This document shows positions 22,955 to 37,977 of a stretch of 64,000 nucleotides of DNA, in pieces. Position numbers and translations under genes: made by a program. This DNA is from a virus (taxonomy: Duplodnaviria; Caudoviricetes), in IMG/VR virus record IMGVR_UViG_3300020371_000002, one strand, 5' to 3'. The notes beneath the pieces were generated by a model. That model searched no databases, was not told where the DNA came from, and worked only from the letters and a program-made list of their open reading frames with translations. Every line of letters starts with the position of its first letter. Within the stretch, counting starts at the first letter, position 1.

Positions 22955-25229
22955 ACTCGCCAAATGGGTTCCTTTCTGAGAAGTCAAGAATCTTGTCTGC
23001 CTCAGTCTCGATGTTTTCATTATCACCAAATCCCGTGTTATCACCACTGAAATCAATAGTAGAGATCGTGTAACTAACTCCAGCACCAACAACAGATTCT
23101 CCAATGACAAAACTACCATCAACTCTGGTAAGTTCGAGAGTCTTATTGGGCATGTTCCAAGATTTGACAGTACCCTTGGTTCCACTTTCCAGACCTTCAA
23201 CTTCCATACCTCTTTCATATTCTCCGAAGGATGGATCTCTAACAGAGTCAATACCGACAGTAGGATAGTTAAATGTATATCCTGCACCAGCACTACGATA
23301 TCTAATTTGTGTGAGAGATCCTGTAACATCCAGAACTGCCTCTGCACTGACATTATTAATTGCAGTGGATGTTCCAACCGATGAAGGAATGAAGATTGGT
23401 TGAACGTATATATTTGGTGTAGTCGAGTATCCAACACCACCAGTGATGATGCCTGCAGGTCCCATAACACCTGTATTGATTACGGCAGTTGCAATACCAC
23501 CACCTGAACCGCCGCCACCAGAGATGGTTACTGTAGGTGGACTTTGATATCCAGTACCAGGATCGATAAGGAGAATTCTATCGATACCCAATCCAGTGTT
23601 TGCAGTTCTACTTGTCATAATAGCAACCGCAGTTGCCTGTACACCTCTATCTGGTTCAGTAATATAAACCAGAGGAGTATTCATGAAACCTTGTCCAGTT
23701 TCTTTAATGAAGATTGAATCCACCTTCAGTCCATCCATAACAGCGACTGCCTGTGGGACAATATTATCGCAGGTTTGAATATACTGTGCTACTTCACTAG
23801 TGTGTAAATCAACTTCCTGTTCTGTAGTAGTTGTGGGAATTTGAGTATCTATAGCAGTTCTAAACTGGGTATCAGTGGTATGTAAAATAGTGACGTGATC
23901 AAGAACACCAATATATCCAGCTGTTCTTGTTGGAGCTCTACCTGCACCAGCAACGTCAGCACCCAGTTGCAGTACATCATTACCGATGAATGGAATTGGG
24001 TCTACGTTGGCATATGGTCCTTGAGAGACTCCATTGACACTGATCCTTGCGTCTGTGCCTACCTGAACGATTCTAACGAAGTTCCAAGCATTCAGATTCA
24101 TCCTCTGAGAAGATGAAGTGGTTGTCTGTGCCGATGCGAATCTAATTTTACCATCAGGTAGATGGAAGATCTTGATCCTATCGGACCACATTAAAACACC
24201 ACCAAGATTTACATCTGGTTCCAAATCAGTTGGGTAATACCAGAAACTAATTACAATCCTGCCATTTCTTCCATCAATTGTCGATGGGAACACCAATCTA
24301 GAATTTTCTACATCTGTCGCAGCTGTGTGTTCAAATGCATTATTACCGAACTTAACTGATGTTGCAGTAGTTCTATTCGGTGGACTGAATGTAACGGTAG
24401 GAATTTCTAGGTGATTTGAACCAGAATCTGTAACTGTGATACTGGTTATTGCTTTATCGGTTAAAGATGCAGTCGCTGTTGCACCTCTTCCTTTTTCTGG
24501 ATTGGCAATAGTTACACTAGGAGTAGTAACATAACTACCATCATTGACCATATCAATATATTGAACAGACTTCACATCGGTGAATGTAGAAGCATATCCA
24601 ATACTTGCAGCTGCAGAAACTGCAGTGTCACCAATCATCTTGATGATTACAGCAGTACCCTCTCCACCAAGAGGTTCAATAATATCCTCACCTTGCATAC
24701 CAGTTTCAACATCAGAGATGTCAATGATCTCATCTTTATACTCAAAGATCTCACATCTGAGTTCATACATGAAGAGATCATTTAACTGATAGAAAGGAAC
24801 CTTTCCTTCCACATACTTAATCTCAAATAAAGCATTATCTAAAGGAAGATAAATCAAGTCGCCTTCTTGAGGTCTATTAGTTAATTTAACAGTACCTTCT
24901 GGATACATCTCCAAGAATGGACTGATGAAATCATCATACCTTTCTTTAGAAATTACTAATTGAATCTCATCTGTTGCACGAACACCAAACTTTGTTAGAA
25001 TATCTGATGGAGTACCAAACCCCTCAAAGTTGGTTAGATATGCTTCGATTCGGAAACTATCATCGAATCTAGAAGCATTAATCTCTTTAATTACTGTTGC
25101 TTCATTAATGATCTTTCTAGGAAGATACAAGACATCCTGACCAAACATCTTAAGATGTTCGTTCACCAAATCCTGAACTAACCTCTGTTCACTAGGTGAT
25201 CCGTGTAAGAAAAAAGGACTTAAAGGCAT
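22950..25229 (-). CDS. g14: Neck protein gp14 with a large inserted region (759 aa)
   Basis: gp14 N-terminus (EQRLVQDLVNEHLKMFGQDVLYLPR, PQEGDLIYLP, FYQLNDLFMYELRCEIFEY) and C-terminus (ILDFSERNPFGEF). The middle has GSGY-type repeats and a LamG-like domain. Confidence 0.92.
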   Translation of the reverse strand: MPLSPFFLHGSPSEQRLVQDLVNEHLKMFGQDVLYLPRKIINEATVIKEINASRFDDSFRIEAYLTNFEGFGTPSDILTKFGVRATDEIQLVISKERYDDFISPFLEMYPEGTVKLTNRPQEGDLIYLPLDNALFEIKYVEGKVPFYQLNDLFMYELRCEIFEYKDEIIDISDVETGMQGEDIIEPLGGEGTAVIIKMIGDTAVSAAASIGYASTFTDVKSVQYIDMVNDGSYVTTPSVTIANPEKGRGATATASLTDKAITSITVTDSGSNHLEIPTVTFSPPNRTTATSVKFGNNAFEHTAATDVENSRLVFPSTIDGRNGRIVISFWYYPTDLEPDVNLGGVLMWSDRIKIFHLPDGKIRFASAQTTTSSSQRMNLNAWNFVRIVQVGTDARISVNGVSQGPYANVDPIPFIGNDVLQLGADVAGAGRAPTRTAGYIGVLDHVTILHTTDTQFRTAIDTQIPTTTTEQEVDLHTSEVAQYIQTCDNIVPQAVAVMDGLKVDSIFIKETGQGFMNTPLVYITEPDRGVQATAVAIMTSRTANTGLGIDRILLIDPGTGYQSPPTVTISGGGGSGGGIATAVINTGVMGPAGIITGGVGYSTTPNIYVQPIFIPSSVGTSTAINNVSAEAVLDVTGSLTQIRYRSAGAGYTFNYPTVGIDSVRDPSFGEYERGMEVEGLESGTKGTVKSWNMPNKTLELTRVDGSFVIGESVVGAGVSYTISTIDFSGDNTGFGDNENIETEADKILDFSERNPFGEF

Positions 25230-26047
25230 TATCCGATCATGTCTAGAGGTGGCATTGCATATTCAGTCATTAGTCTCTCTTCATGGTCTTCGATCTCTCT
25301 CTGAGCATCATCGAACAGTTGTCTACCATTCATTTCAAGACCGCCAGGAAGTTTGACCCCTTGGAATTTGATCAAGTTCTGACCCCACTGTCTCTTGATT
25401 AAAGAAGTTGTATATCTCTTTAACCAAGGATCGTTGTAAACAGAAGTTGCGGATTGTGGATCCACTTCTCTGTAACAATCAATAAGAATATAATGATTAG
25501 CCGTGACTTCACCAAGGTCAATATCTAAGTATAGTCTTCTATTTTTCTTGTTGAACCTAACCTGAGCATCAGGATTGATCATATAATCAAGAGTCTCAAG
25601 GTAAGATTTTACCATTCCATAATTTAACAGATCGATTGCTCCGTAGTAATATAAATCATTCAGGAACAATTGATATTTGATATTGAATAATCCGTCCGAA
25701 ACGGATGAAGAGTCAATCTTGAAGATCTTGTTTACTCCAATGATTGAATCTGGAAGAGGTAGATAATTAGCACCTTCCTCATATTCCATTGTAGAGACGC
25801 CGCCGTGGGTACTAGTCCCAGTGGTAGTAGAAGCAATACCTGCAAAAGTATCCTTCTCCACTTCAAGCAACTTATGCTTGAGAAAAACTCTGTCTATTCC
25901 CTCACCATGTCTTTCATGGTATAATTGGATGGCATCATCGATCAGATCCTCAACTTGATCGTCGTCAACGTTGATCTCCAATACTGGTTTACCGAGTTTC
26001 CTTAGACAGTATTCCTTCAACTCGTCTCTACTAGAGGGCTTTGCCAT
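25229..26047 (-). CDS. g13: Neck protein gp13
   Basis: MAKPSSRDELKEYCLRKLGKPVLEINVDDDQ, QWGQNLIKFQGVKLPGG; start at ATG 26047. Confidence 0.95.
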   Translation of the reverse strand: MAKPSSRDELKEYCLRKLGKPVLEINVDDDQVEDLIDDAIQLYHERHGEGIDRVFLKHKLLEVEKDTFAGIASTTTGTSTHGGVSTMEYEEGANYLPLPDSIIGVNKIFKIDSSSVSDGLFNIKYQLFLNDLYYYGAIDLLNYGMVKSYLETLDYMINPDAQVRFNKKNRRLYLDIDLGEVTANHYILIDCYREVDPQSATSVYNDPWLKRYTTSLIKRQWGQNLIKFQGVKLPGGLEMNGRQLFDDAQREIEDHEERLMTEYAMPPLDMIG

Positions 26048-26074
26048 TCCCAAACTCTATAGGTTTCTCCAAAG

Positions 26075-26082
26075 TATTTATG
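26075..26082 (-). promoter_or_regulatory. Late promoter (CATAAATA) for g13-g14, overlapping the gmhD start codon on the other strand
   Basis: Plus strand TATTTATG includes the ATG at 26080. Confidence 0.6.
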
Positions 26083-26886
26083 ATCTTACTAACTGGTTAC
26101 AAAGGATTTATTGGTTCTCACTTCAGACAAGCACTAGGTGAAATGGGTGAGGACAAAGTGATTGGTGTCAATCAGGACAATGCCTGGGAGTTTGTCAGCA
26201 AGTTTGATGAATGGGATAAACTTAAATTAATTATTCATAATGGAGCAATGTCTTCCACCACAGAGAAGAACTGGATGACTATTGCACACTACAATCAAAA
26301 CTTCACTGCTCATCTCTTCGGAAAAGCAATAGAGTATCAGATTCCTATTAAATATGCATCCTCTGCTTCAGTGTATGGGAATCAAAAGAAGAATAGAAAA
26401 ATTATAAACCCGTTAAACCAATACGCCATTTCAAAACTAATCATTGACTACTATGTCTTAGACCATATAGACAAATTCAAACATATTCAAGGATTTAGAT
26501 ACTTTAATGTATATGGAACAGGAGAAGATCATAAGGGTGATCAAGCAAGTCCTATCAGTAAGTTTACCAAACAAATCAGAGAGACTGGAGAATTAACGTT
26601 ATTCGAAGGTTCTGATAAGTTTTATAGAGACTTTGTGTGGGTAAAAGATGTAGTGGATGTTGTTCTTAACAATACTGCTGATAGTGGTATCTACGATGTT
26701 GGTACGGGTAATCCAGTATCATTTGAAACTGTTGCTGAATTAGTCGCAAAAAAAGAGAAGGGAACCATAAAAAGGATCCCCTTCCCAGAACATCTTAAAG
26801 GTAAATATCAAGACTATACCTGTGCTAACAATTCATGGTATGAACATGATTACACTACTGTTGAAAGATATCTTGGAAGTGTATAA
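26080..26886 (+). CDS. gmhD: ADP-L-glycero-D-manno-heptose 6-epimerase-like extended SDR
   Basis: MILLTGYKGFIGS, IIHNGAMSSTTE, YASSASVYG, LNQYAISK (YxxxK), FRYFNVYGTGEDHKG-QAS, RDFVWVKD. The only supported plus-strand gene in the window. Confidence 0.85.
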   Translation: MILLTGYKGFIGSHFRQALGEMGEDKVIGVNQDNAWEFVSKFDEWDKLKLIIHNGAMSSTTEKNWMTIAHYNQNFTAHLFGKAIEYQIPIKYASSASVYGNQKKNRKIINPLNQYAISKLIIDYYVLDHIDKFKHIQGFRYFNVYGTGEDHKGDQASPISKFTKQIRETGELTLFEGSDKFYRDFVWVKDVVDVVLNNTADSGIYDVGTGNPVSFETVAELVAKKEKGTIKRIPFPEHLKGKYQDYTCANNSWYEHDYTTVERYLGSV

Positions 26887-27430
26887 ATCCCGTCGCAATG
26901 TATTTTTCATTTGAAGTGGGCATCTCTCCTTCATGTGCAAAGAGATAACTACATGGAAAGATAAGAACTTTTCCTGCTTCTGGTTTGATTGTTACATTGA
27001 GATCTGGAAACGATGTGCAACCACCCTCTTCAACATCATTTAGATAAGCAATAACTGCAAAGACTCTCGTAGCGTTTGGACCCGCAGTTTGATCAAAGTG
27101 TTCTAGGAAATGACCCCTGTCCTTTGGATACACTCGTACTGAAATATCTCGAAGAACTAGAGGTTCTCCCTTTGGAGTTAGATGTTCCGACTCATACTTC
27201 TCATATGCCCTAAAAAATCCTTGAGTTAGAAAATGGGATATAGCGTCATCAGGTTTAGGATATGCCTGAGTTGCAACTTTCTTAGTCCAATTCACGACTG
27301 AACCATTGGAATGGTCCATTGTTTTTCCGTCGTGATGTAATTCTGGAGTATTCTTAAACCAGTCAATAATAGTATGACATTCTTGCTGATCGTAAATGTC
27401 ATAACAACAAATAAATTCACTCAGTTCCAT
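26855..27430 (-). CDS. 2OG-Fe(II) oxygenase (prolyl-4-hydroxylase-like)
   Basis: HFD...AYLNDVEEGG-T-F...LIFP...AH (HxD...H triad); 3' end overlaps the gmhD 3' end by 32 nt. Confidence 0.88.
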   Translation of the reverse strand: MELSEFICCYDIYDQQECHTIIDWFKNTPELHHDGKTMDHSNGSVVNWTKKVATQAYPKPDDAISHFLTQGFFRAYEKYESEHLTPKGEPLVLRDISVRVYPKDRGHFLEHFDQTAGPNATRVFAVIAYLNDVEEGGCTSFPDLNVTIKPEAGKVLIFPCSYLFAHEGEMPTSNEKYIATGFIHFQDIFQQ

Positions 27431-27808
27431 TCAGTCTCCTGGAATGATACGATTACTATCTTCATCAAAATGTTCTGAACTAAACTCAAATAGTTCTGTG
27501 TCTTCCATGGCATACATTCTATGTTTCATTCCAACTGGAACATGAAATTTATCACCACGTTCTAAAACGTCTACCGTTGCCATTTCAATGTTGTCATCCC
27601 ATCCATAGTAGATTCTGATTTTTCCACTCTGAACATAAAAGACTTCATCTTTTAGTTTATGGTAATGCCATGAACATTTTTTTCCTTTTGCAAGGAAAAG
27701 AAGTTTACCGCAGTATTGATCGCAGTTTACAATCCACTTTTCATATCCCCACCCTTTAGGTACGAATTTAATTGGATTGCCCTGCCTCGGTCTTGAAGAA
27801 ATCTCCAT
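27431..27808 (-). CDS. Cupin-domain protein, putative sugar isomerase
   Basis: KGWGYEKWI, SWHYHKLKDEVFYVQSG (HxH...E), HVPVGMKHRM. Confidence 0.8.
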   Translation of the reverse strand: MEISSRPRQGNPIKFVPKGWGYEKWIVNCDQYCGKLLFLAKGKKCSWHYHKLKDEVFYVQSGKIRIYYGWDDNIEMATVDVLERGDKFHVPVGMKHRMYAMEDTELFEFSSEHFDEDSNRIIPGD

Positions 27809-28112
27809 CGTTTATACCTTTATCGTCAATGTAATAATCGGCAGAAGGTTTACCTAAACGTAAATCGGTAAACATGCATCCCCAATTACAAAGTTGTTTT
27901 AAAGTCAACTTGTAAAATGCATCATGTGCTTTTTGACAGTCATCATTAAATCTACCCATACCTCTAGCAGTAAAGTAGATTACCTCATTGCCTTTAATAT
28001 ATAGATCGTTTATTTGACAGATTCTATCATATCGGGGGACTGCGTGAGTATACTTTTCCTCACCCTCACCAGGATAACAGATAGTGCCATCAATGTCTAC
28101 CACATATTTCAT
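27768..28112 (-). CDS. Small HAD-superfamily phosphatase
   Basis: Motif I DIDGT, motif II FTARG, motif III GKP, motif IV YIDDK. Confidence 0.85.
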   Translation of the reverse strand: MKYVVDIDGTICYPGEGEEKYTHAVPRYDRICQINDLYIKGNEVIYFTARGMGRFNDDCQKAHDAFYKLTLKQLCNWGCMFTDLRLGKPSADYYIDDKGINDGDFFKTEAGQSN

Positions 28113-28885
28113 AGTTGTCCAATGTCGTTTTGTGTTAGTGTATAAACGCCAGGATGTTGAACCGACATCGCTGCAGCACGGTTTGCATAATCAATCGAAA
28201 CCTGCAAGTCATGGGTTTCCAAATGTCTTTTAACTAATGCGGCCAAGAATGTGTCTCCTGCACCAGTTACATCATACACTTTAACTTGGGACTCTAACGT
28301 AAAGGTAATGCCTGCCCACTTAGCACCCGCAGCACCCATCGTAACAATCATATGAGTATCGTGAGGCATATCTTCGTGTTTCTCTAAAAGATCATATTCT
28401 TTCTTATTGATCTTGTAGAAAACATTATCTTTATGATATAATTTTCTCTTTTTTGTATCTACGAAAATAGGGCCATTGAAACTTTCAATAATCTCTTTCA
28501 TCCTATCTTCGGGTAGAAAACCTTTACCATAGTCAGAAATGACCATGACATCAAATCCGCCAAAGTGGATAAACGATGATCTAAGTTGTGCTGCGGTGAT
28601 GGGACTGACTTCTTTGTCTTCGTCCATCCTCATTAATTGGTAACCACTATTCTCATCGATGAAACGAGTCTTAATGATATGTTCTTTATGAGTTAATAGA
28701 TCTGTAGCAACACCAAAAGATCTCAAATTATTATTGACATTGGCTGCCATTCCTTTGGTCTTCTCACTCCGAGAATACTTCAATACTGGAACAGGAGCTT
28801 CGGGACTTAATCTATCAACAGTACCGTAAACATATTCATCGTCACATGTATCTCCAAGGACGATTGCCTTAAATGTATCACTCAT
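28109..28885 (-). CDS. hldA: Heptose-7-phosphate kinase (HldA / HldE kinase domain, PfkB family)
   Basis: VLGD...DEYVYGTVDRLSPEAPVPV, GMAANV, SDYGKG, DVTGAGDTFLAAL. Confidence 0.88.
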   Translation of the reverse strand: MSDTFKAIVLGDTCDDEYVYGTVDRLSPEAPVPVLKYSRSEKTKGMAANVNNNLRSFGVATDLLTHKEHIIKTRFIDENSGYQLMRMDEDKEVSPITAAQLRSSFIHFGGFDVMVISDYGKGFLPEDRMKEIIESFNGPIFVDTKKRKLYHKDNVFYKINKKEYDLLEKHEDMPHDTHMIVTMGAAGAKWAGITFTLESQVKVYDVTGAGDTFLAALVKRHLETHDLQVSIDYANRAAAMSVQHPGVYTLTQNDIGQL

Positions 28886-29282
28886 AATTTCTCAAAATTG
28901 TTTGAATGACTTTTGTAGAAGAATATCCGCCGACTCTTGGTAAGTGTCGAACTTCCTTTGCAAAGTCTGCTCCAACAACATCACCATTCTTCCAGTCTCC
29001 TCCCAAAAGAAGAATATCTGGACTATACATTTCGATCAAATCTTCTAATTCTTTCCTACTATTAAAATAGTGTACAGTATCTATGTAACGAATAGATTGT
29101 AACATTGACATCCTATAGCATAAATCATTAATAGGCTTAGAGGGACCTTTGTCGTTCCTAATCTTTTCGTCCGTATCTGTCGCTACAATAAGTTTATCTC
29201 CTAGAGAAGCACCGACTTTAAACAATTCAATATGCCCTGGGTGCAAAATATCAAATGTTCCGTTAGTAAAAACAATCTTCAC
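28878..29282 (-). CDS. hldC: Heptose-1-phosphate nucleotidyltransferase (HldC / HldE domain II)
   Basis: IVFTNGTFDILHPGH, KGPSKPIN, GGDW, GGYSST; GTG start overlapping the upstream stop (GTGA). Confidence 0.88.
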   Translation of the reverse strand: MKIVFTNGTFDILHPGHIELFKVGASLGDKLIVATDTDEKIRNDKGPSKPINDLCYRMSMLQSIRYIDTVHYFNSRKELEDLIEMYSPDILLLGGDWKNGDVVGADFAKEVRHLPRVGGYSSTKVIQTILRNYE

Positions 29283-30082
29283 TTAGGTTCTCCGTACTGT
29301 CCATATTTTAAAAATTTCTGATACTCACTATGATTCACTGGTAAGAAAGTTCCTGGGCCACCTAAGAAGATGAAGAACATTTGAACCAATCTCCAAGTAT
29401 CTCCAGTAAACATTCCAGGTTTAATATAACCTGTATGGAGAATGTTTGCAGGATACATTACAAACCTATTATACTTCATTTCGGCAAGATGTATCAGTTC
29501 CCACTCCTCCTCACTATCTGTAATATAATTATCGTAATAGGGGTACTTATTTTTCTTCTTTAACCAGTTATCTATTTTATCTGGATTGCCCAGTTGATCA
29601 CCTTCTAAGGTATAAAATGATGTGCCACCTGCACATTCTTCATCCTTATTAAGATATACAGTTGCAGCATATAACATCCCACCATCATCATCCACATGGG
29701 GGACAATAGGTTTTAGATTTTCTGATTGAGTCACATTGACACAGAATGTCAATCCCTTAATGGAATCTTCTACCCTAGCAGGAGTAATTTTTTTCTCCTT
29801 CATGTGATCTCCATAAACACTACCAAAAATGTTAGTAAAGAATGGAGTTAATGATGAGAAATCATAGTATGCATCTACCCTGTGGCCAGGCGCCCCTGCC
29901 AAAATAATTGGATTATTCGTACATGGAATCTGTAAGGCCAGATCTCTAACCATTTCTGGGTTCTTGTAGAAGTTATCAATAGTGACAATTTTGGATTTCT
30001 CTGGTCCAATTGTATGAACACTTGCTTCTAGATCATCACCCAAAGCAAATACTTCATGTTCATCAATAAAAGCTTTTTTCAT
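29279..30082 (-). CDS. DUF6445-like putative 2OG-Fe(II) oxygenase, copy 2
   Basis: IDNFYKNPEMVRDLAL, PHVD, VYLN...GGTSFY, KYNRFVMYPANILH. Confidence 0.78.
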   Translation of the reverse strand: MKKAFIDEHEVFALGDDLEASVHTIGPEKSKIVTIDNFYKNPEMVRDLALQIPCTNNPIILAGAPGHRVDAYYDFSSLTPFFTNIFGSVYGDHMKEKKITPARVEDSIKGLTFCVNVTQSENLKPIVPHVDDDGGMLYAATVYLNKDEECAGGTSFYTLEGDQLGNPDKIDNWLKKKNKYPYYDNYITDSEEEWELIHLAEMKYNRFVMYPANILHTGYIKPGMFTGDTWRLVQMFFIFLGGPGTFLPVNHSEYQKFLKYGQYGEPK

Positions 30083-30813
30083 GGATCTAACGCAACGAAC
30101 ATCATTTGAATTAATCTATAGAGATCACCAGTAAACATATCTGGTTTCATATAAGCAGTATGTACTACATTGCCTGGATACATTACCAGACGATTATATT
30201 TCATTTCTGCAACACTGAGTAATTCCCAATCAGGAACATTATCAGTGTCTGTAATATAATGATCCCAGAATTTTTCTTTACCTTTTGATTTTAACCACTG
30301 ACCAATATCTTCATTGGTAATGGATTGTTTACCATTTAACATATAGAACGAAGTCCCGCCCTGGCACTCCTCAGGCGTGTTTAAATAGATTCCCGCAGCA
30401 AATAACATAGAATCCCTATCATCGATGTGTGGGGTCACTGGCGGTAGGTTTACGGACTGATTAATGTTGACACAGAAGGGAGTTGTACGAACTGACTCAT
30501 AAATTTGGTCATCACTAACATTCTCTGTCAAATCCCCATATACAGTCCTAAACAAGTGTCTAAAAATAGGATATAAAGATTCGAAATCATAATGACCAAA
30601 CACTCTAGTGCCAGGAGTTCCTGCCATTATCTTTGCATTCTCTGTCGGAGGAATACTTAAAGTAAGATCTCTAACCATGTCTGGATTCTTGTAGAAGTTA
30701 TCAACAACAACTACACGAACTTCTTCTGGTCCAATAACATGAACACAAGCTTCCAGATTTGGATTTACTTCAAAGACTTCTTTTTCATTAATAAAGGGTA
30801 TATTCATTTCCAA
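30079..30813 (-). CDS. DUF6445-like putative 2OG-Fe(II) oxygenase, copy 1
   Basis: VDNFYKNPDMVRDLTL, PHID, IYLN...GGTSFY, KYNRLVMYPGNVVH; clear paralogue of the adjacent gene. Confidence 0.78.
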   Translation of the reverse strand: MEMNIPFINEKEVFEVNPNLEACVHVIGPEEVRVVVVDNFYKNPDMVRDLTLSIPPTENAKIMAGTPGTRVFGHYDFESLYPIFRHLFRTVYGDLTENVSDDQIYESVRTTPFCVNINQSVNLPPVTPHIDDRDSMLFAAGIYLNTPEECQGGTSFYMLNGKQSITNEDIGQWLKSKGKEKFWDHYITDTDNVPDWELLSVAEMKYNRLVMYPGNVVHTAYMKPDMFTGDLYRLIQMMFVALDP

Positions 30814-32321
30814 GGATTAACCGCTTTTTCTGTAAGATAATTTAAAGATGCAAAGTTATCTACTACTTTCTCAGCGACAGGAAGATAATCATATTTACCA
30901 ACTTCATTATCAAGGAATCTTTGTAAAAGTTCTCTAGAAAATTGTGGTGGCAGATCTATGTCTTTACTGCAAACTGGATAATCCAATTGTTTCAACCAAC
31001 AGAACCAATTTGCACCTGAGAACATTTCTTTACCTACATCATTGATACTCTTAGCTGCATACGCAAAGTCATTTGCATACCATTCCAGAGTTGGTGAAGA
31101 TTTATAATTCTGTTTAACCCATAACCAGAACTTACCTTCTTGTTTTGGTCTAGAATAATGCATATTCACAAAGTCAATAGAATTCTCATAGAATGCCTTC
31201 ATGTTTGCATTATACAAATCAATATCATGTTGATCGTAATTACGAGTCTTAATTCTCCTCAAAAACTCCCAAGCGCCTGCTGAGATGAGTCCAATACCTG
31301 TACTCTCCAGTGGTTCAATAAATCCACCCGATAACCCAATATTAACAACATTCTTCTCCCAGAAATTGCGAATGTAAAAAGGAGTCCAATCTAAAACTTT
31401 AAGACTGCCCTTTTCCAATCTTTGATCCCAATATTCAATAAAGAAATCTGCAGCTTCATCTATAGGAGTAACACTTCTATTGAATACTAAACCTGTTCCA
31501 TACCTTTTACTTGTAGGAATTTTCCAAATCCATCCATGTTCTACAGCATCACATGCAGTATATGGTTTTAATTCCTTAGTTCTATCAATGTATGGAACAT
31601 GACCAGCAACGGCAGTATCACAGAAAAGTCTATCAGTGAGATCTACTCTATCTTTATCTTCTCTAAGTAAACCTTTAAATCCAGTGCAGTCTACGAAAAA
31701 ATCTGCTTCATGACAATCACCATTAGCAAGACTTAAAGAATGGATATATCCATCCTGAGTTCTATTGACAGACATAACATCAGCTTCTATAAAGTTAATT
31801 CTGTCAGAAATCTTTCCTTTAATGAATTTTACAAGAAGAGAAGCATCAATATGTTGTGCATAGATTTTTAAATTATCAGGATCTATTTTATTATCTCTAA
31901 CTGCTGCATTGTAATGAATTTCACAATCAGTCTTTTTGTTAGGAAAATGTTCTTGATTCTGTGACCACAATTCATGTATTGTAATATCTGATCCTGGGAA
32001 AATACCAAGACTATCCAAATTAGGGAATGCAAAGGGATGCCAAATATCTTCACCTTCGCCTTTCCAATTTTCAAAAAGAATACCACCTTTAAAAGTAGAT
32101 GTTACCTCACGAAACCATTCTCGGAGTGGAAATCCACAATCATCCATGAATGCTTTAAAACTAAGGATGGTTGCTTCACCAACTCCAACAGGATTACCAC
32201 CATCAGTTTTATCGATAAGACTAATAGTAGTATCCTTGGTAATATTATTTAAAAGTAAAGCGGCAGTCATCCATGCGGAAGTGCCACCTCCCACAATGGT
32301 AATTCTTTTTGCATCTCTCAT
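30804..32321 (-). CDS. Flavin-dependent halogenase (tryptophan halogenase PrnA / VirX1-like)
   Basis: IVGGGTSAW, VGVGEAT, FKGGILFENW (catalytic Lys position), FFVDCTGF, GWIWKIP (WxWxIP), FIEPLESTG. Confidence 0.92.
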   Translation of the reverse strand: MRDAKRITIVGGGTSAWMTAALLLNNITKDTTISLIDKTDGGNPVGVGEATILSFKAFMDDCGFPLREWFREVTSTFKGGILFENWKGEGEDIWHPFAFPNLDSLGIFPGSDITIHELWSQNQEHFPNKKTDCEIHYNAAVRDNKIDPDNLKIYAQHIDASLLVKFIKGKISDRINFIEADVMSVNRTQDGYIHSLSLANGDCHEADFFVDCTGFKGLLREDKDRVDLTDRLFCDTAVAGHVPYIDRTKELKPYTACDAVEHGWIWKIPTSKRYGTGLVFNRSVTPIDEAADFFIEYWDQRLEKGSLKVLDWTPFYIRNFWEKNVVNIGLSGGFIEPLESTGIGLISAGAWEFLRRIKTRNYDQHDIDLYNANMKAFYENSIDFVNMHYSRPKQEGKFWLWVKQNYKSSPTLEWYANDFAYAAKSINDVGKEMFSGANWFCWLKQLDYPVCSKDIDLPPQFSRELLQRFLDNEVGKYDYLPVAEKVVDNFASLNYLTEKAVNPWK

Positions 32322-34168
32322 TGATTAGGGACCTCAATCATTAACTTATACTCGGGAAGATATAGATATTCAATATCACTTTCTACAAGAGTTCGAACAG
32401 CATCGTGCAAATCTTCTACTAATGGTTCTCCTCCAAGATTGAAAGAGGTATTAAAGATGATTGGGCATCCAGTTTTGTTATAGAACTCAGTAATTAGTTC
32501 GTGGTAATGTTTGTTTTGATCTTCAGTAACGGTCTGAATTCTACATGTATCATCAACGTGAATGATGGCAGGAATCTTTTCTTTAATTCCTTCCTGACAC
32601 TTGACTGCATACATCATGAAAGGAGTTTCATCCATTCCACGAAGATCGAACCATTCATGAACATGTTCTTTTAGAATAGAACCAGCAAAAGGTCTGAAGT
32701 ATTCACGACGTTTTACCGTATTTACAAAGTCCTTTCCATCGGGATCACGAGGGTCATAGACAAGAGAACGATTACCTAATGCACGAGGACCCGCTTCGGA
32801 CTTACCCTGCCAGACTGCGACAATATTTTTATCAGTAATTAACTCAACAACATCTGCATCATTAGCTTCAAATACTCTATTCGCACCTGCCTGATCCGCA
32901 ATATCGACAATTTCACTACGAGTGTGATTATATTCAAATCCAGTATAAAGGTCGTGAAGAGGACCTTTGATTCTAGTATCGGTTGGATTTAATCTATGAT
33001 GCATCAACATTGCAGCACCAAGTGCAGTACCTGCATCATTACTTACAGGTTCAACAAACAGATTGATACCTTCACCTTCCAATTGTTCAAGATACCAATA
33101 GTTTGCAACACAATTCAATGCATATCCACCCGACAGAACTACGTTCTTCTTACCACTAATCTTTACAGCATATCGAATCAAATCAAGAACCATTGCTTGA
33201 GATTGCGTCTGAATTGCATACGCAAAATCTCTACGATTATCAAGTTCTGTTAGATCATATTGTTTGTTCTGTGCTTTCTCATAGAGTTCGTAATCCGTTC
33301 TAAGGAATGGAAATCTACCCTCATTGACGAACGCGCCGTTGGGGTAATTTGGAGAAATCACATCTCTATTAGTGGTCTTCCAATCAGAAGTACCATTAAC
33401 GTCACCATAGATTGCAGGAATCTTATCATTGGGTTTTCCATATGGGAAAAGACCCATGGTCTTACCAGCCTCAATGGGTTGGAAACCACAGTAAGAAGTT
33501 GCAGCCTCATATGCCTTAACAATACCTGCACTATCATCAAGAACTAACTCGTAAGTAGAACCAGGTTCCCCTTCTTCAGTAGCATCAAACTCAGGGAACC
33601 TATGAGAAATGTATGGTCCTCTACCACCCAAATGTTTATAGAGTGTCTTGAATTCGTGAGGATAACCACAATCAAAGATTGATTCTAATTCCCACACAGT
33701 TTCATTACGACCATTCATATTCATAGGAATGAATGTTCCTGCACCATCAACAATAAGTGCAACAGCATCTTCAAAACCAGAACGGTAGAAGGCACATGCC
33801 GCATGAAGTTTATGGTGGTTTCTACTCAGGTCAATAACCTGGGGATGACCTGGGTGCAGTTCTGCCTTTCTATCGATGAGACCTAATTTTCGGGCAAGAC
33901 CTGTATAAACATCATCCCCAGTGAAATCAATATGTCCAGCAGCACCTGTATGCCCTGGTGTTTCTCTGAGAGGTTGAGTATGTGCAATGACTAGGTAATC
34001 TAATCGATCCGTATACTCTTTAATTTTCATCATGGCAGCAAATGGGCCGCCATCGTATTTCTGTCTAGATAGTCTCTCTTCCTCTACAGAAAAGATAACT
34101 TCCCCATCTTTGAGGAGACAAATACCGCCATTGTGGCCTCTAGTGAGACCTGCAATCCATTGTGCCAT
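32318..34168 (-). CDS. Carbamoyltransferase (NodU/CmcH/TobZ family)
   Basis: VEEERLSRQK, HHKLHAACAF, DGAG, SGGYALNCVAN, NDAGTALGAA, EAGPRALGNRS, KRREYFRPFA, NTSFNLGGEPLV. Confidence 0.93.
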   Translation of the reverse strand: MAQWIAGLTRGHNGGICLLKDGEVIFSVEEERLSRQKYDGGPFAAMMKIKEYTDRLDYLVIAHTQPLRETPGHTGAAGHIDFTGDDVYTGLARKLGLIDRKAELHPGHPQVIDLSRNHHKLHAACAFYRSGFEDAVALIVDGAGTFIPMNMNGRNETVWELESIFDCGYPHEFKTLYKHLGGRGPYISHRFPEFDATEEGEPGSTYELVLDDSAGIVKAYEAATSYCGFQPIEAGKTMGLFPYGKPNDKIPAIYGDVNGTSDWKTTNRDVISPNYPNGAFVNEGRFPFLRTDYELYEKAQNKQYDLTELDNRRDFAYAIQTQSQAMVLDLIRYAVKISGKKNVVLSGGYALNCVANYWYLEQLEGEGINLFVEPVSNDAGTALGAAMLMHHRLNPTDTRIKGPLHDLYTGFEYNHTRSEIVDIADQAGANRVFEANDADVVELITDKNIVAVWQGKSEAGPRALGNRSLVYDPRDPDGKDFVNTVKRREYFRPFAGSILKEHVHEWFDLRGMDETPFMMYAVKCQEGIKEKIPAIIHVDDTCRIQTVTEDQNKHYHELITEFYNKTGCPIIFNTSFNLGGEPLVEDLHDAVRTLVESDIEYLYLPEYKLMIEVPNQ

Positions 34169-34181
34169 AACAAACTCCTAA

Positions 34182-35312
34182 TTACTTCGAAGACTTGAGA
34201 AGGTTCTCAACTTCGGATTTAAACCCCTTATTTGGTTTTACTGCTGTAGATGGAATTTTCAACTTGGTGGGTTCCATGGTTGAAAACTGTAAATTATTCT
34301 GAACAGGTGTAGGTGCAGCACACTGTTGACCTTCATTCTGTGTCAGTTGTTCTAAACTTGGACCAGTATACTTAACTGATTTGCCAAGTCTCTTTCTCGC
34401 AGAAGTAATAACTTCTCTTACTTGTGCATCAGACATTTCACATGCCTGATCATTATATCTAGTACGTTCTTCATCCATCGTAATTCTGATTGGATCGTAC
34501 TTTCTTCTACCTTCACCAACATCAACAATATCAAAATCCTTGAAGTCTGGATACGAAATGTTAATTGGGAATGTAGAACCAATAACAACAGTTGCTGTTT
34601 TCTTTAATGCTTTTGCGATGTGTTGTCCTACACTATCACAACCAATAAAATGATCAGCACCATCAATAACTCCAGCCCAAATTCGAATGTCTTCGATTTG
34701 TGGACGAGCGACTTTGTGTTTTGCCTTTTCTTCATTTTCTTCAACTGGGAAGTGAATTTCACTCATGATAGCAACAGCATAATCTTTTTTAAGATCATTG
34801 ATGATATCAACTGTATTGACCATGTTCATACTTCGTGAACCAGGATCAACAACAAAATCCCCCACACTGGTAACTCCTCTACCAAAAGGTTGAATAATAA
34901 CAACCTTTTCTTTACCAGTTCCTGCTTTAATTTCTGTAAGAATATTTTGTGCCGTTACAACTTCCATCTTCGAAAGATGGATACTTGGATCTTGCAGTTC
35001 TCTGGGTTCATCAAGCTCATTGATAATGATATCAAAAGCCTGTGCAAGATTACATTTTTGATTATAGTAGTGCCAACATCTGTAGGGTTCTGGACTTACG
35101 AGATCCCTATGAATCAAATGTTCTTCGAATAAATTTTTGTGCCAGGAATCATAACACTTGTTATGAAGAACTGGGTGTCCTTTATAAAAATCTGTGCCCG
35201 CCTCACAAACGATAACAAAATCGTCGTGGGTTTCGGCGTATTTTTCCAATGCTGGGATAGAAGACAGGACTCTTCCTGCTCCACCATTAATAAAGAATGC
35301 TTTAGGTCTCAT
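34182..35312 (-). CDS. GT-B glycosyltransferase, GT9 (heptosyltransferase)-like
   Basis: N-terminal GGAGR..SSIPAL (cf. GT9 xxGD...PAL), VIIQPFG, and FIGCDSVGQHIAKALKKTATVVIGSTFP matching the GT9 signature IGxDSGxxHxAxAxxxPxVxxFGxTxP. Confidence 0.65.
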   Translation of the reverse strand: MRPKAFFINGGAGRVLSSIPALEKYAETHDDFVIVCEAGTDFYKGHPVLHNKCYDSWHKNLFEEHLIHRDLVSPEPYRCWHYYNQKCNLAQAFDIIINELDEPRELQDPSIHLSKMEVVTAQNILTEIKAGTGKEKVVIIQPFGRGVTSVGDFVVDPGSRSMNMVNTVDIINDLKKDYAVAIMSEIHFPVEENEEKAKHKVARPQIEDIRIWAGVIDGADHFIGCDSVGQHIAKALKKTATVVIGSTFPINISYPDFKDFDIVDVGEGRRKYDPIRITMDEERTRYNDQACEMSDAQVREVITSARKRLGKSVKYTGPSLEQLTQNEGQQCAAPTPVQNNLQFSTMEPTKLKIPSTAVKPNKGFKSEVENLLKSSK

Positions 35313-35333
35313 GTCAAAGATTCAATTTGAAAG

Positions 35334-35341
35334 TATTTAGG
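35334..35341 (-). promoter_or_regulatory. Late promoter (CCTAAATA) heading the tailoring operon
   Basis: 21 nt upstream of the GT9-like ATG; same NNTAAATA class as the structural-gene promoters. Confidence 0.65.
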
Positions 35342-35364
35342 GGTCTTTTCAGACCCCCTTTTTT
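35340..35364 (+). terminator. GC-rich hairpin with its T-tract on the plus-strand side
   Basis: Plus strand GGGGTCT-TTTC-AGACCCC-C-T6. On the minus strand it is a GAAA-loop hairpin with no U-tract. Confidence 0.5.
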
Positions 35365-35372
35365 ATACTATA

Positions 35373-36242
35373 TCAAAGACCAGGATTCTGATCTTCTGTT
35401 GGTTTTGCACGTTCCATTTGTGCCAAACCTTCTGCAACTGCACGAGCTTCCTTCTCTTTCTTACGAGCTTTAGCTGAGGCAGTCATAGTCTCGTATCTAG
35501 AAGATTCCGAGTCAGGATGGACAGGTGCCATCATAGCAGCGACTGCGGGAGGAATGCCCTGCTCTGTAACCAGAGTAGGCCAATCTCTCAACTTCTGTCT
35601 ATAAGATGTCCAAGTTTCTACCATTGCAGTAGGCATATCGGAAGAAATTTGACCGTCACTGTTGGTCAACATGGTGTTTCTGGTTTCTCTAATATCTTCT
35701 ACACCGAACCAGTCATCATTTGCTTCACCAAGAATAACTTCATTAACGCTCATCATTCTTGCGGTTGGAACACCATCAACAACTCTTACTGAGTCCATAT
35801 CCCAGATAAACTTGGGAAGGATGGGAAGACTGTATTGGAATCTCTCATATCCTTCCAGTGCAGGAGATTGTGGGTGGTTTGCAACAGATCCTGCTGCATC
35901 TCCAGTCTGAGGATTAAGAGTTTCGTTGTCTGGAAGAACTGGACCAGAGAACTCTTGAGATTCGTTGACGATAGGTCCTCTCAGTTGACAGATCAGAGGA
36001 TACTCTGTGCAGTCAACTTCGAAAAATTCTGTGCAATCTGCAGGAAGAGGACGGCCATCAGCCTTATCATCTTCTGTCAGTGGACCATACTTTTCATATC
36101 CATCGGCACCAATTTGAAGATAGATCTTATCGGGTCCGTGATATGTATACTTACGGGACTTAAGTTGTGCCCTATTGTGATCTACCATGTACTCGTCGGG
36201 GAGTGGTAGATCAAATTCTACTTTAATAATTTGTGTTGCCAT
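35373..36242 (-). CDS. Putative fibre assembly chaperone with an extended N-terminal domain
   Basis: C-terminal IRETRNTMLTNSD...WTSYRQKLRDWP is the phage tail assembly chaperone signature; follows the three Cys-rich genes. Confidence 0.7.
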   Translation of the reverse strand: MATQIIKVEFDLPLPDEYMVDHNRAQLKSRKYTYHGPDKIYLQIGADGYEKYGPLTEDDKADGRPLPADCTEFFEVDCTEYPLICQLRGPIVNESQEFSGPVLPDNETLNPQTGDAAGSVANHPQSPALEGYERFQYSLPILPKFIWDMDSVRVVDGVPTARMMSVNEVILGEANDDWFGVEDIRETRNTMLTNSDGQISSDMPTAMVETWTSYRQKLRDWPTLVTEQGIPPAVAAMMAPVHPDSESSRYETMTASAKARKKEKEARAVAEGLAQMERAKPTEDQNPGL

Positions 36243-36346: not shown

Positions 36347-37129
36347 TTAGACGTAAGTAATCTTAACGATACCAGTACCACCCGTTCCACCAGTTCCATT
36401 GTCCCAGTTACCGCAATATGTGGTCATACCACCTTGTCCGCCATTTGCGAATGGAACAGTCCAACAACCGCATCTGTTCCAGCATTCGTGTAACTGATAT
36501 TGGACTTCACCACCGATAAATGGAGCAGAGAATGGTTGAGAACCTGTACACTGACAATGGCAGTGATATGCGTGAGAACCAAATTCACCAGCGTGTGCTC
36601 CCATCATGAAGTCAGAACCTTGATCATTAGGTCCTTTACAACATGTAAATACTGAGTTACATGCAGTGTTCCAAGAAGTGTTTGCCTCACCTCTGTGACC
36701 ACCAGTTGCACAGAAATTACTCAAGTTGTATCCATTAACGTAAGAAGCACATCCGTAACACCCTACGCACTCATAAGAACAACAGGGATAAACACCTGCG
36801 GCACAAATGGTATACTGACAACCAGGAGCAGTAGTAATAGTTTTATTTGCATAATATCCACCACCAGCACCTCTGTAGTGATGACAACGGTTCCAGGAAC
36901 AATGCCCGTGTCCGTTTCCACCCGATCCCCAAAGTTCAAATGTGACTCGTCTTACACCGTTGGGTACGGTCCAAAGACAGCAGCATCCACCAGAAGCAGA
37001 CGACATACTTCCGTAGACCCACTGAATATTCCAAGTATTCAGAGCATTAGAGTTGATTTTTGCATCGGTGATTACACCATCGGGAAGTGCTGCACCATCA
37101 ACCTTTTTGTAATCTGTATAATTTGCCAT
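36347..37129 (-). CDS. Cys-rich glycine-rich virion (fibre-tip-like) protein, paralogue 3
   Basis: 260 aa, 23 Cys. WTVPxGVxxxxFExWGxGGxG ... GGxGIVKITY glycine-rich fibre-tip scaffold. Confidence 0.75.
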   Translation of the reverse strand: MANYTDYKKVDGAALPDGVITDAKINSNALNTWNIQWVYGSMSSASGGCCCLWTVPNGVRRVTFELWGSGGNGHGHCSWNRCHHYRGAGGGYYANKTITTAPGCQYTICAAGVYPCCSYECVGCYGCASYVNGYNLSNFCATGGHRGEANTSWNTACNSVFTCCKGPNDQGSDFMMGAHAGEFGSHAYHCHCQCTGSQPFSAPFIGGEVQYQLHECWNRCGCWTVPFANGGQGGMTTYCGNWDNGTGGTGGTGIVKITYV

Positions 37130-37152
37130 GGGTGTAAGAATCCTACGTTAAG

Positions 37153-37956: not shown

Positions 37957-37977
37957 TTTCTTTAAGTTCCCCTGATA

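Follow-up and report, generated by a model that had tools for sequence, protein, structure and literature searches.

Fibre-linked transferase and carbamoyltransferase genes in a cyanophage sugar cassette, with a possible role in fibre glycosylation

Introduction

Why does an uncultured ocean cyanophage carry sugar-tailoring genes right after its tail-fibre adhesin genes? We addressed this question in a 64,000-nucleotide viral sequence (IMG/VR record IMGVR_UViG_3300020371_000002; hereafter, the window). A cassette between fibre/adhesin/chaperone genes and gp13 comprises ten closely spaced genes on the minus strand (26855-35312) plus an HldD-like epimerase gene (26080-26886) that converges on them. 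A preliminary description had read it as a self-contained, late-expressed pathway that decorates the virion. It also stated, correctly, that sugar genes of this kind are usually assigned to host lipopolysaccharide (LPS). Sullivan 2010 classed them as functionally linked LPS genes of unknown role (PMC3037559), and later cyanophage papers take them as host surface modification (PMC12801897).

Results and Discussion

Architecture of the locus

From the transferase to the last oxygenase, the gene junctions measure +13, -4, -10, -4, -4, -8, -4, -41, and 0 nt. Both these gaps and the open reading frames are exactly as first described. The gene identities all held as well, through Pfam, NCBIfam, and PDB matches and, for the transferase, an AF2 model compared with GT9 structures. 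The placement between fibre/chaperone genes and gp13 was also borne out. Directly upstream lies a gene for a tail-fibre assembly chaperone-like protein of 289 aa (35373-36242, minus strand; Pfam Phage_tail_APC 8.1e-7; PHROG tail fiber protein). Beyond it are three Gly-/Cys-rich paralogues of 260-265 aa (36347-38760, minus; Pfam Gly_rich_2; ~17% Gly and 8-9% Cys), presumed to be distal fibre adhesins, and a 1475-aa tail fibre protein (38832-43259, minus) with 68% identity to SSSM7_113, a tail fiber protein of S-SSM7. The downstream boundary is the head-tail adaptor gene gp13 (25229-26081, minus; PHROG 211 head-tail adaptor 4.2e-47), with gp14 on the same side. The late promoter of gp13 (26075-26081) is an ATAAATA placed 21 nt ahead of its start codon.

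The unit is bordered by a late-promoter-like CTAAATA at its start (35334-35340, minus; 21 nt before the ATG of the transferase gene) and by a terminator-like hairpin at its end (26755-26786, minus; 12 pairs followed by TTTTTTT in the terminator scan), which falls inside the 3' end of the epimerase gene facing it. A GC-rich hairpin read in the gap that separates the cassette from the chaperone gene (35340-35357; listed on the plus strand by the scan) overlaps the CTAAATA motif with its 3' arm. Across the window, all 23 occurrences of [AC]TAAATA are on the minus strand, 17 of them 18-44 nt ahead of a start codon; a motif scan found none inside 26082-35333. Among related loci, 51 of 79 have the motif within 100 nt upstream of the transferase, versus 3.3% of background windows. 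It is absent from that position in 26 loci, where a DUF6445 gene is directly upstream. The late promoter of the preliminary description therefore stands as a motif. Its statistics favour late transcription of the cassette, a timing read from the motif alone.

A phage-restricted GT9-fold transferase

The first gene encodes a 376-aa glycosyltransferase (34182-35312, minus). The window protein had no Pfam match, and 36 of 56 relatives matched Glyco_transf_9, weakly. Its AF2 model is confident (pLDDT 90.6), and the top structural matches are all GT9 enzymes (VIA Z 18.7-23.6), with the next GT-B structure at Z 12.0. On this model, the protein has a GT9 fold. It shares with WaaC and WaaF (CAZy GT9) the GT-B fold (Z 18.9-21.0), the D(S/T)GxxH donor motif (D226 and H231 conserved), an N-terminal G-x-V-L-x3-P-A-L frame, and an ADP-heptose pathway encoded alongside. 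Besides the donor motif, about 30 further positions are invariant or nearly so, and the C-terminal tail is variable from about residue 316.

The differences from WaaC and WaaF are equally marked. R14 stands where WaaC has its catalytic Asp13, and this residue is Arg in every family member examined, a replacement that leaves both activity and mechanism in doubt. The acceptor domain is acidic (pI 5.9), whereas those of WaaC and WaaF are strongly basic (pI 9.7-10). Among 185,579 species genomes, the family occurred only on phage-like MAG contigs, and the host has no Kdo/heptose core.

The preliminary description had likened the protein to the bacterial autotransporter heptosyltransferases TibC and Aah (BAHT), which transfer heptose onto an adhesin protein, the same logic as we propose for the phage. 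The GT9 relationship held (Z 19.5 to TibC), but a particular kinship did not. The phage transferase is structurally no closer to TibC than to WaaF, and it aligns only to TibC residues 96-391, without the N-terminal iron-binding/oligomerisation region. It also lacks the catalytic Asp of these enzymes, the Arg-for-Asp correspondence with TibC being one of structural register only.

Carbamoyltransferase, halogenase, and oxygenases

The second gene encodes a 616-aa NodU/CmcH-type O-carbamoyltransferase (32318-34168, minus; Pfam Carbam_trans_C 5.6e-59, Carbam_trans_N 1.6e-28). It is followed by a flavin-dependent enzyme of the tryptophan-halogenase family (505 aa; 30804-32321, minus; Pfam Trp_halogenase 7.6e-88), with PDB matches to PrnA (3e-63) and VirX1 (6qgm, 3e-44). 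Two DUF6445 2OG/Fe(II) oxygenases with 53% identity come next: copy a (244 aa; 30079-30813, minus; Pfam DUF6445 2.8e-16) and copy b (267 aa; 29279-30082, minus; AF2 pLDDT 90.1). Residues H129, D131, H216, and R231 of copy b are invariant. The best VIA-wide fold matches of copy b were OGFOD1 (Z 14.0), Tpa1 (12.5), and a mimivirus lysyl hydroxylase (12.2). The model thus places DUF6445 structurally nearest to protein prolyl/lysyl hydroxylases, although only about 2 Z units separate these from small-molecule oxygenases. A further 2OG-Fe(II) oxygenase (191 aa; 26855-27430, minus; Pfam 2OG-FeII_Oxy_3 6.1e-13; PHROG 61) is the last gene of the unit and varies between loci.

This mixture of halogenase, carbamoyltransferase, oxygenases, and glycosyltransferase resembles natural-product tailoring. 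The cassette could accordingly produce a small molecule, either a halogenated, carbamoylated heptoside or a modified nucleotide-sugar, acting in or outside the infected cell. DUF6445 is also similar to the sugar- and amino-acid-acting oxygenases PasI, PolD, and HygX (Z 11-12), and the substrates of the viral halogenase VirX1 are small aromatics. However, the cassette contains no scaffold-forming enzyme, the halogenase and extra oxygenases are variable cargo (the halogenase in 24 of 41 loci), denV lies mid-block in S-SSM7, and the invariant part is tied to fibre genes in divergent phages. We regard such a product as very improbable.

A plausible heptose-donor module

Five genes could supply the sugar donor. 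An HldC-like heptose-1-phosphate adenylyltransferase (134 aa; 28878-29282, minus; Pfam cytidylyltransferase-like) matched NCBIfam rfaE_dom_II at 8.3e-32; its 110 bits fall under the curated cut-off of 181.5, with TagD at only 75 bits. An HldA-like heptose-7-phosphate kinase with a short N-terminus (258 aa; 28109-28885, minus; Pfam PfkB) had rfaE_dom_I as its best NCBIfam match (3.7e-39; 134.7 bits, under the curated cut-off of 345). The 114-aa product of 27768-28112 (minus) is a mini-HAD phosphatase with a DIDGT motif (NCBIfam EcbF-BcbF capsule phosphatase 3e-5; PDB 1xpj 2.7e-7 and 9iqw 2e-6), and its atlas neighbours carry HAD Pfam families. It is a candidate substitute for GmhB, i.e. the 7-phosphatase. 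Its public label, "phosphoheptose isomerase", does not fit this fold and motif; nor do the folds found here fit the public labels "cysteine dioxygenase" and "minor coat protein".

The overlapping 125-aa cupin gene (27431-27808, minus; Pfam Cupin_2) encodes both canonical cupin metal motifs, co-occurs with HldA/HldC, and has atlas neighbours in the Lyx_isomer and MannoseP_isomer families. A SIS-domain gene was found in none of four complete genomes, and the cupin is a candidate sedoheptulose-7-phosphate isomerase in place of the missing GmhA. Finally, the head-on gmhD-like epimerase of the preliminary description was confirmed as an HldD-like ADP-heptose 6-epimerase gene (26080-26886, plus strand). 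The nearest solved structure is the E. coli ADP-L-glycero-D-manno-heptose 6-epimerase (PDB 1eq2, E 4.6e-44). The phage epimerase gene is the sole plus-strand gene of the window. Its correct start codon, an ATG at 26080, reads as the reverse complement of the opening bases of the late promoter of gp13, CATAAATA, and its convergent orientation is kept in most related loci. A complete, self-contained donor supply is therefore plausible. Viral heptose enzymes have been demonstrated to produce ADP-heptose (PMC11461863).

A fibre-linked core and a mobile module

The window cassette shares synteny with PSSM2_307-313 and SSSM7_120-133. In relatives, the carbamoyltransferase is directly downstream of the transferase in 56 of 56 loci (median gap 51 nt), and a DUF6445 oxygenase usually adjoins this core pair. 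Fibre, adhesin, or chaperone genes precede the transferase in 61 of 62 cyanomyovirus loci. Searching from the adhesin-like genes instead, we found the transferase within 4.5 kb downstream in 51 of 51 loci. As related loci share ancestry, these large counts are not independent events. Divergent homologues (26-38% identity) lie directly after tail-fibre or fibre-assembly genes in all six phages that carry them (L096-L099, the N4-like Vibrio phage SBP1, and Aeromonas phage HJ05). The donor module (HldC, HldA, mini-HAD, metal cupin, and HldD) is adjacent to the core in 29 of 41 loci, yet mobile. The S-SM2 heptose genes belong to a non-structural island that also contains a capsule-biosynthesis gene and several further glycosyltransferases. 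The linkage to structural genes for which a synteny survey had been proposed thus applies to the core but not to the heptose genes of S-SM2. The cassette is a composite of core, donor module, and variable cargo. Of the self-contained pathway first described, the donor supply survives as plausible, but no single conserved pathway unites the ten genes.

The homologue of the Vibrio and Aeromonas phages is surrounded by fibre/tail genes and has no sugar genes beside it. Together with the family-wide Arg, this would suit a non-enzymatic GT9-fold protein, such as an assembly factor associated with the fibre or a virion component that binds sugar, with a retained nucleotide-sugar pocket, the neighbouring sugar genes being unrelated auxiliary cargo. 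The conserved donor motif and other near-invariant positions, the constant carbamoyltransferase neighbour, and the co-occurrence of heptose genes with the core in most genomes argue against it. Vibrio and Aeromonas also produce their own ADP-heptose. We give this explanation only a slim chance.

What does the cassette decorate?

Comparative evidence suggests glycosylation of fibre proteins as the best-supported reading (probability roughly 0.45). Building on the observed gene identities, folds, motif conservation, and synteny, we propose an acceptor, timing, and chemistry as follows. The unit would be transcribed from its own late-type promoter alongside virion genes. The donor module would convert sedoheptulose-7-phosphate to ADP-L-glycero-beta-D-manno-heptose through, in order, the putative cupin isomerase, the HldA-like kinase, the putative mini-HAD 7-phosphatase, the HldC-like adenylyltransferase, and the HldD-like epimerase, in a host with heptose-free LPS. 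The transferase would then add heptose to a phage structural protein, possibly at a residue hydroxylated beforehand, and the carbamoyltransferase would subsequently O-carbamoylate the sugar. The likeliest acceptors are distal fibre proteins encoded just upstream, with the Gly/Cys-rich adhesin-like paralogues and the long fibre as candidates.

Glycosyltransferase genes also lie within structural modules in mycobacteriophage capsid/tail and in chlorovirus/mimivirus fibril glycosylation, and giant viruses likewise encode nucleotide-sugar supply. Freeman and colleagues reportedly found in 2023 that glycosyltransferase genes beside structural genes modify mycobacteriophage virions. Because DUF6445 matches the mimivirus lysyl hydroxylase at Z 12.2, a hydroxylase-plus-transferase logic (cf. 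the mimivirus L230 lysyl hydroxylase-glycosyltransferase) is possible. Unlike those examples, the phage system, seen here through genes and models, would combine a GT9-like transferase, heptose, carbamoyl capping, and fibre-specific placement.

The fibre linkage may also mark receptor-modifying genes tied to receptor-binding genes. Under host-surface remodelling, carbamoyl-heptose would be put on a host envelope glycan (LPS, capsule, or surface glycoprotein), masking the receptor and preventing infected cells or debris from adsorbing progeny or competitors; receptor-binding protein and receptor modifier would have co-evolved. 7-O-carbamoyl-heptose is known in the Pseudomonas LPS core. The published LPS assignments, the S-SM2 sugar island, and a sigma70-like promoter ahead of the P-SSM2 transferase also favour this reading. 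However, marine Synechococcus LPS is devoid of both heptose and Kdo (PMC4515613) and hence of the canonical acceptor for a GT9 enzyme. This and the acidic acceptor domain weaken the host LPS alternative. Family searches of the cassette genes revealed no flippase, polymerase, lipid-carrier transferase, or membrane protein, the transferase family was seen only in phage contexts, and the fibre linkage extends to lytic N4-like and other phages without a sugar pathway. Host-surface remodelling is unlikely on balance, though it deserves serious weight.

A third possible target is DNA. A 2OG oxygenase would hydroxylate a base (as TET/JBP do), the transferase would heptosylate it, and the carbamoyltransferase would cap the sugar, shielding phage DNA from host nucleases. 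Phage clusters of a HAD/kinase enzyme, a cytidylyltransferase, and a GT-B transferase install mono-/di-heptose on 5hmC and can be near structural genes (bioRxiv 10.1101/2023.12.21.572611). The cassette likewise encodes heptose-nucleotide supply and a GT-B transferase, with many 2OG oxygenases. In contrast to those clusters, its transferase subfamily and its kinase and nucleotidyltransferase types are different, and a route to 5hmC (C5-cytosine methyltransferase, ThyA/dCMP-hydroxymethylase family) was not found in the complete S-SSM7, P-SSM2, and 246-kb relative genomes. The transferase resembles GT9 rather than T4 beta-GT-like DNA transferases, its acidic acceptor domain is a further objection, and DUF6445 is nearer to prolyl/lysyl hydroxylases (Z 12-14) than to NgTET1 (Z 9.2). 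We consider DNA hypermodification distinctly improbable.

Glycosylation of the phage's own fibres thus remains our preferred, if tentative, reading. The genes are the same as those of the cyanophage "LPS gene clusters" of P-SSM2, S-SSM7, and S-SM2 (Sullivan 2005/2010; T4-GC 302-308), which published work takes for host LPS genes or, possibly, stuffer DNA. Our analysis divides them into a fibre-linked transferase-carbamoyltransferase core and a mobile heptose module, a split not made in that literature.

Gene layout and family assignments

Our ORF map reproduced the layout of the preliminary description, in which ten minus-strand genes (26855-35312) are joined at junctions of +13, -4, -10, -4, -4, -8, -4, -41, and 0 nt. 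The flanks also agreed, with a Phage_tail_APC chaperone, three Gly_rich_2 paralogues, and a 1475-aa fibre upstream, and gp13 and gp14 downstream. Pfam searches agreed with that description, recovering a carbamoyltransferase, a tryptophan halogenase, a pair of DUF6445 proteins, a cytidylyltransferase-like protein, a kinase of the PfkB family, a cupin, and a 2OG-Fe(II) oxygenase. The carbamoyltransferase (32318-34168, minus strand) is of the NodU/CmcH type, matching Carbam_trans_N at 100.5 bits and Carbam_trans_C at 199 bits against Pfam gathering cut-offs of 24 and 27. The halogenase scored 295.8 bits against Pfam Trp_halogenase and matched PrnA at 3e-63. Its translation contains both family motifs, GGGTSAW (GxGxxG) and GWIWKIP (WxWxIP).

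Several neighbouring genes have features of their own. The gp14 neck protein (22950-25229) is long, at 759 aa, and its T4 neck domain is followed by a Laminin_G_3 (concanavalin-like lectin/glucanase) domain. The three Gly/Cys-rich paralogues (36347-38760; 260-265 aa; ~17% Gly, 8-9% Cys, and 3.5-3.8% Trp) share invariant Cys and Trp positions in CCCLWTVP, WNRC, CWTVP, and YCGNWD, and may be adhesins. At each cassette boundary near these paralogues, a hairpin precedes a late-promoter motif. Inside the 1475-aa tail-fibre gene, metatranscriptome contigs (two runs, one sample) skipped 149 nt (39767-39917), which is probably a fibre strain variant and not splicing.

Fold and active site of the transferase

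The first gene of the cassette (34182-35312, minus strand) encodes a 376-aa protein, described previously as a GT9-like transferase. Direct sequence searches with this protein gave no Pfam match and no PDB match. Its family profile reached WaaC at E ~0.5 only, and NCBIfam heptosyltransferase III scored 20 bits against a cut-off of 170. Weak matches to Pfam PF01075 (Glyco_transf_9) were present in 36 of 56 relatives (best E 2.4e-8), with none above the gathering score for the window protein. The family is very common in marine metagenomes, comprising 4,154 clusters at 90% identity and 382 at 50%.

Structure prediction (AF2) from the 56 relatives yielded a model with a pLDDT of 90.6, for which the top 30 Foldseek matches were GT9 structures throughout. 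VIA structure searches gave Z scores of 23.6 for 3tov, 21.0 for WaaF, 19.5 for TibC, and 18.9 for WaaC, against 12.0 for the best non-GT9 GT-B structure. The donor motif D(S/T)GxxH is present, with D226 and H231 invariant in the 56 relatives and aligned to the motifs of WaaC ('vsvDTGlsH') and WaaF (both taken from the E. coli K-12 record). Where WaaC and WaaF have G-D, all eight aligned phage members have G-R within a common G-x-V-L-x3-P-A-L frame. Homologues from Vibrio and Aeromonas phages likewise have G-R, and R14 is conserved in at least 90% of relatives. The Asp of the WaaC pair (Asp13) is the catalytic base of that enzyme, and presumably matches the catalytic Asp of TibC by structural register (model residues 1-313 on TibC 96-391). 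The acceptor domain of the transferase is acidic (pI 5.9, net charge -5; family median -1.5), and that of WaaC/WaaF is strongly basic (pI 9.7-10).

Together, the GT9 fold, the retained donor motif, the G-R pair, and the acidic acceptor domain argue for a GT9-fold enzyme of a distinct branch, predicted to be neither a canonical member nor specifically TibC-like. The GT9-like identity thus stood in fold and donor motif, but not in a PF01075 match above cut-off or in the catalytic Asp. A specifically TibC-like enzyme was ruled out since the Z scores to TibC, WaaC, and WaaF tied within about 2. TibC and Aah (BAHT) also begin with a ~95-aa N-terminal extension (iron-binding, dodecamer-forming), whereas the phage protein begins directly with its GT9 core.

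Linkage to fibre genes across relatives

The cassette shares its synteny with SSSM7_120-133 and PSSM2_307-313. Searching IMG/VR with the transferase located 79 loci. A fibre, Gly-rich, or chaperone gene lies just upstream of the transferase on the same strand in 61 of the 62 loci with enough upstream sequence, and the carbamoyltransferase comes next after it in all 56 (median gap 51 nt). A DUF6445 gene is found within 8 kb (33 of 43 loci), HldA or HldC within 10 kb (29 of 41), and a halogenase in 24 of 41. When the search was started from the Gly/Cys-rich proteins, the transferase was present in 51 of 51 loci having at least 4.5 kb downstream. As the loci are related to one another, they do not represent independent events.

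Stronger evidence comes from six divergent transferase homologues (26-38% identity), all located among fibre/tail or structural genes. Four are on contigs from metagenome-assembled genomes (MAGs): one (L096) has a fibre-assembly chaperone directly upstream, another (L097) is flanked by large structural and fibre-like proteins, a third (L098) follows a 1318-aa tail fibre, and the last (L099) comes after a protein that has a match to fibre assembly. The homologue of N4-like Vibrio phage SBP1 lies between a 'tail fiber protein' and a 'tail family protein', and that of Aeromonas phage HJ05 between a fibre-like protein and the sheath. The proposed link of the transferase to structural genes therefore held for its fibre-side neighbours, from the side of the presumed adhesins, and in distant homologues.

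Among 185,579 species genomes, the transferase family was restricted to MAG contigs with phage gene order and an incoherent set of taxa. The cassette contigs (L085-L099) were in MAGs labelled Actinomycetota, Methanobacteriota, Neomarinimicrobiota, Flavobacteriales, Woesearchaeota, and others. Given their phage-like gene order, they appear to be mis-binned phage contigs.

Composite organization of the block

The ten genes had been proposed to form a single pathway. Among relatives, the interval between the carbamoyltransferase and HldC holds 0-2 halogenases, a second carbamoyltransferase, or extra oxygenases, and we reject the single-pathway reading because this gene content varies so freely. 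In S-SSM7, denV (DNA endonuclease V; L001:14960-15514) sits mid-cassette with a second, shorter carbamoyltransferase, indicating that the site accepts unrelated cargo.

The heptose genes and the transferase can also occur apart. Some clades carry the transferase and carbamoyltransferase together with DUF6445, 2OG oxygenase, and halogenase genes but lack heptose genes in the vicinity, and on two contigs of these heptose-poor clades an HldA-like gene lies ~18 kb away. In S-SM2, HldA, HldC, two HAD proteins, the cupin, and the epimerase occupy a non-structural sugar island near tRNAs, in which other glycosyltransferases are present and the pair of GT9-like transferase and carbamoyltransferase is absent. 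Carbamoyltransferases are also present in many cyanophages without the cassette transferase.

A small molecule as the acceptor would fit the mix of tailoring enzymes, but we consider it very improbable given the variable gene content and a core that stays locked to fibre genes.

Promoters and transcription

The transferase gene is preceded by CTAAATA (35334-35340), 21 nt from its ATG. As this is one mismatch from the late-promoter core ATAAATA, it was assessed by counts within the window. The minus (coding) strand contains 23 copies of [AC]TAAATA, and the plus strand none. Seventeen of the 23 copies sit 18-44 nt ahead of a start codon, and none falls within 26082-35333. Beyond the last cassette gene is a terminator-like hairpin (26755-26786, minus strand) that has a T-run. 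Given the placement of the motif, its absence inside the unit, and the terminal hairpin, a single late-type transcription unit is a reasonable, motif-based reading of the cassette.

In 51 of 79 related loci, the late motif is found no more than 100 nt upstream of the transferase, compared with 3.3% of background windows, and 26 of the 28 motif-less loci have a DUF6445 gene directly upstream. In P-SSM2 (L002:13150-13285), a hairpin terminator and then TTGACT-17 nt-TATAAT stand upstream of the transferase, whose expression there may be early or dual. This sigma70-type promoter is near-perfect, and its spacer includes TATAAATC. Assembled contigs of three RNA-labelled marine runs, which possibly include DNA and carry no timing, strand, or transcript ends, cover the cassette and its neighbours alike.

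The HldD-like epimerase (26080-26886) is the sole plus-strand gene in the 64-kb window, and its convergent orientation is kept in most related loci. It starts at an ATG at 26080, whose reverse complement forms the first three bases of the gp13 late promoter CATAAATA (26075-26082). gp13 and the epimerase diverge without a spacer, so the epimerase promoter must be inside gp13.

ADP-heptose donor pathway

The best NCBIfam match of the HldA-like kinase was rfaE domain I (3.7e-39; 134.7 bits against a curated cut-off of 345), and that of the HldC-like nucleotidyltransferase was rfaE domain II (8.3e-32; 110 bits against 181.5). The nearest solved structures to the epimerase were those of E. coli HldD (ADP-L-glycero-D-manno-heptose 6-epimerase; 1eq2 at 4.6e-44 and 2x6t at 1.4e-43), far ahead of other SDR epimerases, which identifies it as HldD-like. 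The co-location of these three genes makes ADP-heptose a candidate donor for the transferase. Within the HldC-like protein (28878-29282), RVGGYSSTK stands where heptose nucleotidyltransferases have (F/L)xxGxSTT, with Tyr at the fifth motif residue instead of the Arg that is associated with CTP/UTP promiscuity. This substitution weakly favours ADP-heptose as the product.

For the isomerase step, no SIS_2 match indicating a SIS-domain GmhA was found in S-SSM7, P-SSM2, S-SM2, a 246-kb complete relative, or the nearest record (69% complete); the four complete genomes do carry HldA and HldC. The cupin accompanies HldA and HldC across loci, contains both canonical metal-binding cupin motifs, and has D-lyxose and mannose-6-phosphate isomerase families as its Atlas neighbours. 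We infer that it may act as a sedoheptulose-7-P isomerase, making it a candidate substitute for the GmhA absent here. The 114-aa protein is a HAD with a DIDGT (DxDGT) motif that matches the EcbF/BcbF capsule phosphatase family as well as the HAD structures 1xpj and 9iqw, and is a mini-HAD of EcbF/BcbF type, not a canonical GmhB. According to commentaries on Tang et al. 2024 (PMC11461863), viral heptose enzymes make ADP-heptose in vitro, and no phosphatase of the heptose pathway was found among viruses. The mini-HAD may supply this missing step, the dephosphorylation of heptose-1,7-bisphosphate.

Three public names in S-SSM7, P-SSM2, and S-SM2 look wrong. T4-GC 306, named 'phosphoheptose isomerase', appears to be the mini-HAD phosphatase; T4-GC 307, named 'cysteine dioxygenase', a metal cupin nearer to sugar isomerases; and PHROG 1644, named 'minor coat protein', the DUF6445 2OG oxygenase.

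Candidate acceptors

An AF2 model of DUF6445 (pLDDT 90.1) has the fold of a 2OG/Fe(II) oxygenase, with H129, D131, H216, and R231 invariant. Foldseek matches were weak and mixed. Exhaustive VIA comparison placed OGFOD1 first (Z 14.0), with Tpa1, PasI, mimivirus lysyl hydroxylase, PHD, and LH3 at ~12. The model leans toward protein prolyl/lysyl hydroxylases, although small-molecule oxygenases score level with PHD and the lysyl hydroxylases (Z ~12).

We favour a phage fibre protein as the acceptor of the transferase, with a probability of roughly 0.45. Synteny from both directions and across phage groups supports this reading, and further support comes from the restriction of the family to phages, from the late motif, and from the lean of DUF6445 toward protein hydroxylases. 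A complex prediction of transferase residues 1-335 with the adjacent Gly/Cys-rich protein scored 0.00 in a run without controls, and speaks neither for nor against binding. That the GT9-fold protein is a non-enzymatic fibre factor is the least probable of the explanations considered here.

To our knowledge, the function of the 'LPS genes' of large cyanophages has never been put to the test since 2005. Those of P-SSM2, S-SM2, and S-SSM7 were listed as maybe functional, linked, or stuffer DNA (PMC3037559). A host glycan (LPS or surface) as the acceptor has been repeated in later cyanophage papers, but is unlikely for this transferase: heptose and Kdo are absent from marine Synechococcus LPS (PMC4515613, a review), the acceptor domain of the enzyme is acidic, and the cassette has no membrane or export components. 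We regard DNA as a less plausible acceptor still. Heptosylated 5hmC from phage gene clusters is a real precedent (bioRxiv 10.1101/2023.12.21.572611), and a base-J-like route through a thymine hydroxylase is possible. However, neither a C5-methyltransferase nor a gene of the dNMP hydroxymethylase family was found in complete carrier genomes, and the transferase belongs to a different subfamily from that of the phage DNA-heptosylation clusters.

Extending the fibre-protein reading, we tentatively propose that ocean cyanomyoviruses and some unrelated phages decorate their receptor-binding fibres with carbamoyl-heptose, a fuller scheme that is correspondingly less probable. Prolyl/lysyl-type hydroxylation of the acceptor by DUF6445 would possibly come first. 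The phage-only GT9 branch, with Arg in place of the catalytic Asp, would then add a sugar to the fibre, and carbamoylation of this sugar would leave carbamoyl-heptose on the receptor-binding tail-fibre proteins. ADP-heptose would be supplied by the phage's own pathway, patched with the cupin isomerase and the mini-HAD phosphatase.

Implications

Mycobacteriophages and giant viruses are already known to glycosylate their structural proteins with functions that they encode themselves. Our literature search found no published proposal of fibre heptosylation in cyanophages. New here are the distinction of core (transferase, carbamoyltransferase, and usually DUF6445), donor module, and cargo, the linkage to fibre genes across phage groups, a putative GT9 branch flagged by an unusual Asp-to-Arg active site, and the re-reading of three public labels. 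Separating a fibre-locked core from a mobile heptose module replaces a vague annotation with a sharp hypothesis, testable in cultured S-SSM7, P-SSM2, and S-CAM1. If the fibres are glycosylated, the host range and virion stability of marine cyanophages would depend on chemistry that is invisible in fibre gene sequences. Should the sugar prove to be carbamoyl-heptose, a fibre-tip glycan would be a determinant of host range or stability in one of Earth's most abundant virus groups.
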